64,000 nt of DNA. Origin: a virus (lineage: Duplodnaviria > Caudoviricetes). Shown here piece by piece: positions 22,684 through 23,060 of this stretch; position 1 is the first letter of the stretch, and each line of letters begins with the position of its first letter. Under the pieces are notes generated by a model, which made no database searches, was not told where the DNA came from, and was given only the letters and a program-made list of their open reading frames with translations. A program made the position numbers and the translations under genes. The stretch is taken from positions 64,001 through 128,000 of the IMG/VR virus record IMGVR_UViG_3300037312_000330. One strand, given 5' to 3'.

Positions 22684-23060
22684 GTATGTCACTTGAGTGA
22701 GGGGTAAAGCCAAACCCTTGGACTACCGTCGTTATGGCCGACGGAATAGCTGCTCTTCGGAATCCCGCAAGGAGCCTTTGCAAGTGACAGTAATCGACGT
22801 TGCGTCGAAATGCTGATCCGCGTCAGCCATTAAAACCCGTAGCAGCGGATATCGGGAACAAACGACAAAGTCAATCCTTGCAGGCTGAGAACGAGACTCA
22901 GTGCCCGCGTGAGAACCGGTGGGTGTTATCGGACACCCCAACGATAGTGACAGAGAGCTCCCGATGGACGGCCATTTAGCCGGACTCTGGGGTGTTAGCG
23001 GATGTTGTTTAGACATTTCTGCTTCTATCGTTAGAGCGTAGCGTGACAAGGATTGCCCAA
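22684..23060 (+). ncRNA. Unassigned ~370-nt highly structured RNA
   Basis: Long-range stems 22687-95/22781-89, 22872-80/23047-55 and 22940-47/23025-32; loop-loop complement TCCGC/GCGGA. Confidence 0.6.

Follow-up and report, generated by a model that had tools for sequence, protein, structure and literature searches.

A conserved, structured RNA in the tRNA island of a soil jumbo phage, probably a member of a new and rare family

The window analysed here, a stretch of 64,000 nucleotides corresponding to bases 64001-128000 of the viral record IMGVR_UViG_3300037312_000330, carries at positions 22809-23056 a conserved, structured, non-coding element on the + strand. Judging from comparison with two homologues, this element is probably (at a rough estimate, 0.7) the gene for a stand-alone, trans-acting structured RNA that belongs to a new and rare family, with three members in related jumbo phages. 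Phage tRNA islands are a recurrent source of large folded RNAs of unassigned function, such as ROOL, GOLLD and species 1 and 2 of phage T4, and the RNA described here sits in tRNA or RNA-metabolism neighbourhoods of three related jumbo phages.

Genomic setting

The record is 248,884 bp in length and was judged complete, which identifies its source as a jumbo phage, from soil. The folded RNA is single-copy in this genome and lies in a 384-nt gap between two tRNA genes (Table 1), surrounded by genes that are on the + strand throughout. A first-pass annotation, made from the letters of the window, had placed an RNA of about 370 nt between tRNA-Glu and tRNA-Pro. Both flanks were correctly named and the core of this RNA is indeed conserved, whereas its first ~105 nt are specific to the phage of the window. 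The annotation was also right in seeing no credible + strand ORF, as the + strand ORFs are only 39-59 aa long and no reading frame is kept in the homologues.

The truncated-haemoglobin gene on the 3' side of tRNA-Pro encodes a group 1 protein with 65-71% identity to many bacterial ones. Its nearest homologue (76% identical) is found on a phage-like Logan contig in a different gene context, with no tRNAs near it and no RNA motif nearby.

Table 1. Features of the RNA island and of the folded RNA, listed 5' to 3', and three ORFs found in the RNA-positive genomes; coordinates are window positions unless G000 is named.
Feature	Position	Strand	Remarks
GroES-like gene	22225-22518	+	Upstream member of the RNA island
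tRNA-Met	Between GroES-like gene and tRNA-Glu	+	RNA island
tRNA-Glu	22608-22683	+	5' flank of the gap
Gap with folded RNA	tRNA-Glu to tRNA-Pro	+	384 nt
5' extension	22684-22808	+	Phage-specific; domain 22687-22789 and small hairpin
5' domain closing helix, TGTCACTTG/CAAGTGACA	22687-22695 / 22781-22789	+	Three-hairpin domain
Small hairpin, TCGACG-TTG-CGTCGA	22794-22808	+	In 5' extension
Conserved core	22809-23056	+	Common to window, G001 and G033
H1, 5-bp GCUGA/UCAGC, loop UCCGCG	22812-22827	+	Loop is kissing partner a (UCCGC, 22817-22821); 4/5 stem pairs compensatory in three copies
H2, 4-bp CCCG/CGGG, 13-nt loop	22836-22856	+	Partner b GCGGA, 22845-22849, loop positions 6-10
J2, single-stranded A-rich joiner with AAACGACA	22857-22871	+	AAACGACA identical in 3/3 copies
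P_L 5' strand, CAAUCCUUG	22872-22880	+	Pairs with 23047-23055; long-range helix closing the 3' domain
H3, 5-bp stem, invariant 7-nt loop AACGAGA	22885-22901	+	Centre of the 26-nt block identical to G001
H4, bulged hairpin, GNRA tetraloop GAGA	22905-22919	+	From comparison with G001
H5, hairpin GGGUGU/ACACCC	22921-22938	+	Aligns with G001 CUGUUCG/CGGACAG; one compensatory pair
P_M 5' strand, AACGAUAG	22940-22947	+	Pairs with 23025-23032
H6 domain, stem CAGAG 22951-22955 / UUCUG 23017-23021	22951-23021	+	3' strand placed by model-fitted alignment
P_M 3' strand, CUAUCGUU	23025-23032	+	Second long-range helix, encloses H6
J5, conserved single-stranded joiner AGCGUAGCGUGA	23033-23046	+	G001 AGCGUAGUGUGA, G033 AGCGCACACGUUA
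P_L 3' strand, CAAGGAUUG	23047-23055	+	End of the conserved core
Tail	23056-23067	+	12 nt to tRNA-Pro; putative 3' end at RNase P cut 23067/23068
tRNA-Pro	23068-23144	+	3' flank of the gap
Truncated-haemoglobin gene	23162-23611	+	3' of tRNA-Pro, followed by ten further tRNAs
ORF for 415-aa unknown protein	G000 160649-161896 (L242)		Present in the three RNA-positive genomes
ORF for SprT-like protein	G000 202790-203620 (L243)		Present in the three RNA-positive genomes
ORF for phrog_27048 member	51710-52171		Present in the three RNA-positive genomes

Homologues in two related jumbo phages

The neighbouring DUF7873 gene led to 32 related viral loci, and five of those genomes were searched by BLAST. 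One of them, G001 (IMGVR_UViG_3300044765_000092, 238 kb), an uncultured jumbo phage whose DUF7873 protein is 54% identical to that of the window phage, carries the RNA, with an exact 26-nt match to the window (CAGGCTGAGAACGAGACTCAGTGCC) and with the elements of the window RNA in the same order. A second uncultured jumbo phage, G033 (IMGVR_UViG_3300020577_002562, 187 kb), was added by a 15-mer scan of IMG/VR; its RNA has H3 and J2 in common with the window RNA, and G033 and the window phage have ~70 common core genes with roughly 21-50% identity. The covariance model gave scores of 122.7 bits for the window copy and of 100.8 and 91.3 bits for the two homologues. The core measures 248 nt in the window, 215 nt in G001 and about 305-310 nt in G033.

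Only in the window phage is the RNA located between tRNAs. It fills gaps between protein genes in the two other phages, ~4.6 kb from tRNA-Thr/Ser in G001 and ~670 nt from tRNA-Val in G033, and in both of these phages H1 begins only 35-50 nt after the stop codon of the gene upstream. Neither a flanking tRNA nor a flanking protein gene is common to the three phages. Release of the RNA by processing of the flanking tRNAs, as had been proposed at first reading, can consequently apply only to the window phage.

In G033, RtcB and a permuted tmRNA are encoded less than 5 kb from the RNA. This tmRNA of the two-piece type (L186:12881-13554, - strand; 97.8 bits), located ~3 kb from the folded RNA, adjoins the RtcB RNA ligase gene (L186:14104-15330), and its match spans 674 nt against a model of 213 positions, which points to a very long inserted segment. 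A permuted tmRNA hints that the host is one of the Alphaproteobacteria or of another group with two-piece tmRNA. In G001, the motif CTGTAAAGG lies ~20 nt 5' of H1 (L081, - strand, ~1621-1614); it can be compared with the promoter-like motif TGTAAATA and could be the RNA's own promoter.

Distribution of the RNA

The element had no match when compared by blastn with 50,697 phage records. The palindromic H1 pattern gave 47 matches in IMG/VR, all of them chance; three further IMG/VR motif scans returned G001 and G033 only, and no fourth member; and one motif scan each of JGI metagenome contigs and GTDB genome contigs produced chance matches only. A locus similar around AAAGTCCATCC (L167) was rejected, being without the hairpins and in repeat-rich DNA. 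No related viral loci were obtained with the GroES-like neighbour and the G033 topoisomerase as queries. When 33 related phage records and the entire genomes of G002 and G005 were searched with a three-sequence model (R2), only two weak matches came up, L233:9845-9952 (G005) and L183:1501-1605 (G008). Both were rejected, each being a tRNA T-arm read on the opposite strand with a hairpin behind it; antisense of the tRNA T-arm is a predictable false positive of this model. Neither of two complete related genomes, both searched throughout, contains the RNA, nor does any of 30 further related records.

The gene upstream of the RNA in G001 (284 aa) has homologues in four other contigs, three of which have readable DNA and show no RNA motif. 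The gaps behind these homologues are only 67-157 nt, compared with 263 nt in G001, which suggests that the gene for the RNA was gained or lost independently. Three proteins are encoded in all three RNA-positive genomes and went undetected in G002 and G005, these two being the only negative genomes in the comparison: a 415-aa protein of unknown function, an SprT-like protein and a member of phrog_27048 (Table 1). Over 10,000 candidate phage RNAs have been described (PMC10690425); the family presented here is real but rare and patchy, with three known members.

Fold of the RNA

MAFFT gave no structural alignment of the three copies, which were aligned by hand, segment by segment, with every segment verified as an exact substring. 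The full-length single-sequence model misaligned the 3' half of G033; there the hand alignment was used, and the choice of helices in G033 was made partly by hand. The three long-range helices noticed at first reading are all present as perfect inverted repeats, TGTCACTTG at 22687 with CAAGTGACA at 22781, CAATCCTTG at 22872 with CAAGGATTG at 23047, and AACGATAG at 22940 with CTATCGTT at 23025, as are the two hairpins with complementary loops, GCTGA-TCCGCG-TCAGC at 22812 and CCCG-TAGCAGCGGATAT-CGGG at 22836, whose loops match as TCCGC/GCGGA. The first of the helices closes the domain of the 5' extension, which had no homologue in G001, in G033, in the window phage's own genome or in any fetched locus; the two others, P_L and P_M, belong to the conserved core.

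The core starts with H1 and H2, which are joined by a linker of 7-9 nt among the copies, the loop of H2 being 13-14 nt long. P_L, which reads GCACCUA/UAG(C)GUGC in G001 and CUCUCC/GGAGAG in G033, has wholly different sequences in the three phages and pairs in every one, with 6 of the 7 shared columns compensatory. The stem of H3 follows the pattern NUGAG/CUCAN among the copies, its outer pair changing from C-G to U-A in G033. The bulged-C hairpin H4 recurs in G001, where it is capped by a GUAA loop and the model-fitted alignment counts double changes in two of its pairs; in G033 no H4 could be recognised. P_M is represented by CGACUC/GAGUCG in G001, with three compensatory pairs, and by AACGU/GCGUU in G033, where AACGU can also pair locally; H4, H5 and P_M are all weak or ambiguous in this phage. 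The H6 domain encloses a hairpin with the conserved CCAUUU in its loop (22970-22981) and a phage-specific hairpin; its 3' strand is UUCUG in G001 and GUUCUU in G033, and CCAKUU is kept in all three copies. The joiner J5 has the consensus AGCGYA..GU.A in the three copies.

Three sequence repetitions were observed within the RNA. The segment CCCGCAAGGA in the phage-specific 5' domain (22764-22773) shows 90% complementarity to the 5' strand of P_L together with J3 (TCCTTGCAGG, 22875-22884) and resembles the true P_L 3' strand CAAGGATTG. By competing with P_L, this segment could serve as a built-in switch or folding chaperone. The heptamer AGCGGAT occurs twice in the window RNA, in the kissing loop of H2 (22844-22850) and in the phage-specific hairpin region inside H6 (22997-23003), which provides the H1 loop with a second possible partner in the window phage only. 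The pentamer AACGA occurs three times at conserved places, in J2 (22861-22865), in the H3 loop (22890-22894) and at the start of P_M (22940-22944); all three copies are kept in G001, G033 has AACGA, AACGA and AACGU, and the recurring pentamer could be a repeated recognition site.

Compensatory changes and the kissing loop

The hand alignment of the three copies comprises 39 pair columns, of which 21 are compensatory (changed on both sides), one shows a one-sided change and 17 are invariant, with two non-pairing cells; three members are too few for a formal covariation statistic (R-scape). Seven helices and the loop-loop pairing are preserved by compensating changes. The kissing pentamers, UCCGC/GCGGA in the window copy and UCCGG/CCGGA and UCCAG/CUGGA in the others, are Watson-Crick complementary in all three, with two of the five pairs covarying, and the partner in H2 is always found at loop positions 6-10. 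A 5-bp Watson-Crick match between shuffled loops has a probability of 0.005-0.013 per copy, and the product over the copies is about 5e-7. The structured non-coding RNA of the first-pass annotation is thereby upheld, together with its kissing loop.

A tool-made check agreed with the hand alignment. With a full-length model built from G001 alone, the window copy could be aligned over its entire length (47.1 bits), and in this model-fitted alignment of the window with G001 96.8% of the cells were paired, compared with 34-40% when the 3' partners were slid by 1-3 columns; likewise, 12 double changes were counted, compared with 0-1 with slid partners. Since this alignment was fitted to the structure of the model, it is biased in favour of that structure, but the slid controls and the hand alignment concur. 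The MFE fold of G001 independently recovers H1, H2, H3, H4, H5, P_M, H6 and P_L. The compensatory changes in G001 and G033 also rule out recent horizontal copying without independent change.

The thermodynamic signal of the window RNA is modest by comparison with shuffled sequences. For the 384 nt, the MFE z-score is -1.88 (+ strand) or -2.26 (minus strand), that of the window core is -1.50 and those of the cores of the three copies range from -1.5 to -1.8, so that only the 5' 109 nt (-3.34) stand out; simple arithmetic puts the chance expectation for a perfect 9-bp inverted repeat at about 0.3 in a sequence of this length. The sequence of this RNA by itself could not decide the matter, and the significance comes from the two homologues. 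The + strand is favoured by several G-U pairs, by the GNRA loops and by an orientation that is the same as that of the tRNAs and flanking genes. On the minus strand, an ORF of 105 aa (22732-23049) is open in the window. From one copy to another, the spacing of the invariant blocks changes by 1, 2, 10 and 11 nt, none of them a multiple of three, and no common frame is open in all of them, so that this ORF is considered an accident.

Possible role of the RNA

As the comparison shows, the core consists of a 5' module, in which the loops of the neighbouring hairpins H1 and H2 are joined by five Watson-Crick pairs, of the invariant A-rich joiner (AAACGACA) and of a 3' domain, closed by P_L and containing H3, the GNRA-capped H4, H5 and P_M enclosing H6. 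In the window phage, the RNA would be transcribed together with the GroES-like gene and tRNA-Met/Glu/Pro and be released by 3' trimming of tRNA-Glu and by RNase P cleavage at the start of tRNA-Pro, presumably giving a product of about 384 nt that includes the phage-specific 5' domain. The rigid core would display the conserved unpaired nucleotides (J2, the H3 loop, J5 and CCAKUU) as a binding surface for a partner, which may be an RNA or a protein involved in translation or in tRNA metabolism, and during infection the RNA would serve as a scaffold or decoy. Pairing of the kissing loops would either lock the 5' module or link copies of the RNA. Fixed unpaired nucleotides around a junction, combined with drifting helices and a variable periphery, are typical of partner-binding or catalytic RNAs, and binding of a partner as scaffold or decoy is our best, though tentative, guess within the reading as a trans-acting RNA. 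We rank it ahead of self-assembly through the kissing loops, which is followed by a ribozyme or ligand binder and, as a distant fourth, by a cis-regulatory leader.

Self-assembly is a possibility of lower rank: the H1 and H2 loops would pair between molecules, head-to-tail, to form a ring, cage or filament, making the RNA a small homo-oligomeric cousin of ROOL and GOLLD. In these two RNAs the kissing loops, originally recognised as tertiary contacts that covary, turned out to bridge molecules (10.1101/2024.12.08.627333), and cages and filaments are possible for RNAs under 200 nt (10.64898/2026.07.01.735769). The window RNA also has the phage tRNA island context of ROOL and GOLLD, and by our estimate the 7-9-nt linker between H1 and H2 barely spans the 14-16-bp coaxial stem-kiss-stem stack, which would strain a kiss within one molecule. 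This geometry is rough, however, and still leaves room for an intramolecular kiss; moreover, covariation is blind to the difference between pairing within and between molecules, and no second bridging contact was identified.

Unlikely, in our view, is a new ribozyme or small-molecule-binding RNA, in which the invariant AAACGACA, AACGAGA and AGCGUAG would constitute an active site or pocket at the P_L junction. Such a role would be in keeping with unpaired nucleotides that are strictly fixed while the helices drift, with the GNRA tetraloop and with the variable periphery round a constant core. None of the three copies is similar to a ribozyme or riboswitch model of Rfam at E<=10, however, and neither a conserved cleavage-site context nor a conserved neighbour gene hinting at a ligand was found.

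Still less probable is a cis-acting leader or processing element for the gene or tRNA just downstream. The G001 RNA does take up the whole 263-nt gap and ends ~14 nt before the start codon of the next gene, and that of G033 precedes a 255-aa ORF, but the downstream items are unrelated, being tRNA-Pro in the window, a 122-aa ORF in G001 and an ORFan in G033. In addition, a terminator-like hairpin right after P_L separates the G033 RNA from the next gene, and no conserved alternative pairing of terminator and antiterminator type was seen. The absence of any function, i.e. a spacer or decayed relic with chance hairpins, or a protein gene in the 105-aa minus-strand frame, is very improbable: it would suit the weak z-scores, the chance expectation for a 9-bp inverted repeat and the openness of that frame, but is contradicted by the 26 nt identical in G001 despite ~50% protein identity, by the 21 compensatory columns and the loss of pairing in the slid-partner controls, by the shifting block spacings with no frame conserved, and by neighbouring genes that are all on the + strand.

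Significance

With a core of 215-250 nt, the RNA is small enough for chemical probing, native mass measurement and cryo-EM. Its fold is clean and supported by covariation, and the 5-bp loop-loop pairing, already rewritten twice by nature, offers a handle for tests. Should the kissing pair be intermolecular, the RNA would become a minimal model for RNA-only assemblies and, at roughly 250 nt, a third kind of phage "nanocage" RNA beside ROOL and GOLLD, made in bulk with the phage tRNAs. Should it bind a host factor, it would represent a new route by which jumbo phages manipulate tRNA or translation metabolism. These stakes are moderated by the rarity of the family, with its three members.

Comparison with known RNAs

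Rfam 15 (4227 models) was searched by cmscan, with the window at the gathering score and with positions 22500-26600 and the G001 and G033 loci at E<=10. No Rfam family was found on any of the three copies at E<=10, including ROOL, GOLLD, raiA, RNase P, tmRNA and group I introns, which bears out the earlier remark that RNase P and tmRNA signatures are absent from the element.

Several known classes were rejected individually. Bacterial RNase P RNA has no match at E<=10 and P_L is without conserved sequence; of the strands of P4 in RNase P (GGAAAGUCC... / ACAGAA...), AAAGUC is confined to the window copy, neither G001 nor G033 having retained it. Neither a standard nor a permuted tmRNA was found on the element by ARAGORN or by the Rfam tmRNA models, and since G033 has a separate permuted tmRNA 3 kb off, tmRNA and folded RNA are different genes. 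Group I and group II introns gave no match, and in each of the three phages the element is intergenic and interrupts no host gene.

The stable RNAs of T4, species 1 and 2 (rnaC and rnaD), are small RNAs of about 120-140 nt inside the T4 tRNA cluster, where they are matured with the tRNAs. Compared by description only, they resemble the window RNA in its presumed embedding in a tRNA operon and differ in that the two homologues of the latter are not flanked by tRNAs. The raiA motif RNA (RF03072) is a highly conserved, multi-stem RNA of roughly 200 nt (PMC5737381), whose model, at E<=10, matches neither the window nor the G001 and G033 loci.

The closest parallels are ROOL and GOLLD, phage RNAs that occur near tRNA islands and are held by kissing loops (PMC5737381; 10.1101/2024.12.08.627333). 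GOLLD (RF01998) is a phage or prophage RNA found near tRNAs, one studied member being located downstream of tRNA-Met, and has a conserved 3' region, a variable 5' region and a covarying kissing loop (10.1101/2024.12.08.627333). Its variable 5' part is comparable to the private 5' domain that precedes the conserved core here, but it exceeds 800 nt and has 27 stems, and shares neither a model match at E<=10 nor a common sequence motif with the present family. ROOL (RF03087) is a large multi-junction RNA from phages and prophages that is often found beside tRNA genes and perhaps co-transcribed with them (PMC5737381), and both its fold and its assembly depend on kissing loops and A-minor contacts (10.1101/2024.12.08.627333). 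It differs from the RNA of the window in its average length (581 nt vs a core of 215-310 nt), in its junction layout, in having a covariance model that matches none of the three copies at E<=10 and in its occurrence in rumen and Firmicutes phages, as opposed to soil or rhizosphere-type jumbo phages; drifting helices and few fixed nucleotides characterize both. The first-pass annotation had taken the RNA for a new or diverged member of the ROOL and GOLLD class. Divergence from either family is contradicted by the searches at E<=10 and by size, while the likeness in kind stands, as the copies of the window, G033 and G001 are all of phage origin, near tRNA genes and equipped with a kissing loop. 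Without being a member of either family, the RNA is thus of the kind of ROOL and GOLLD and, relative to Rfam 15, constitutes a new family.
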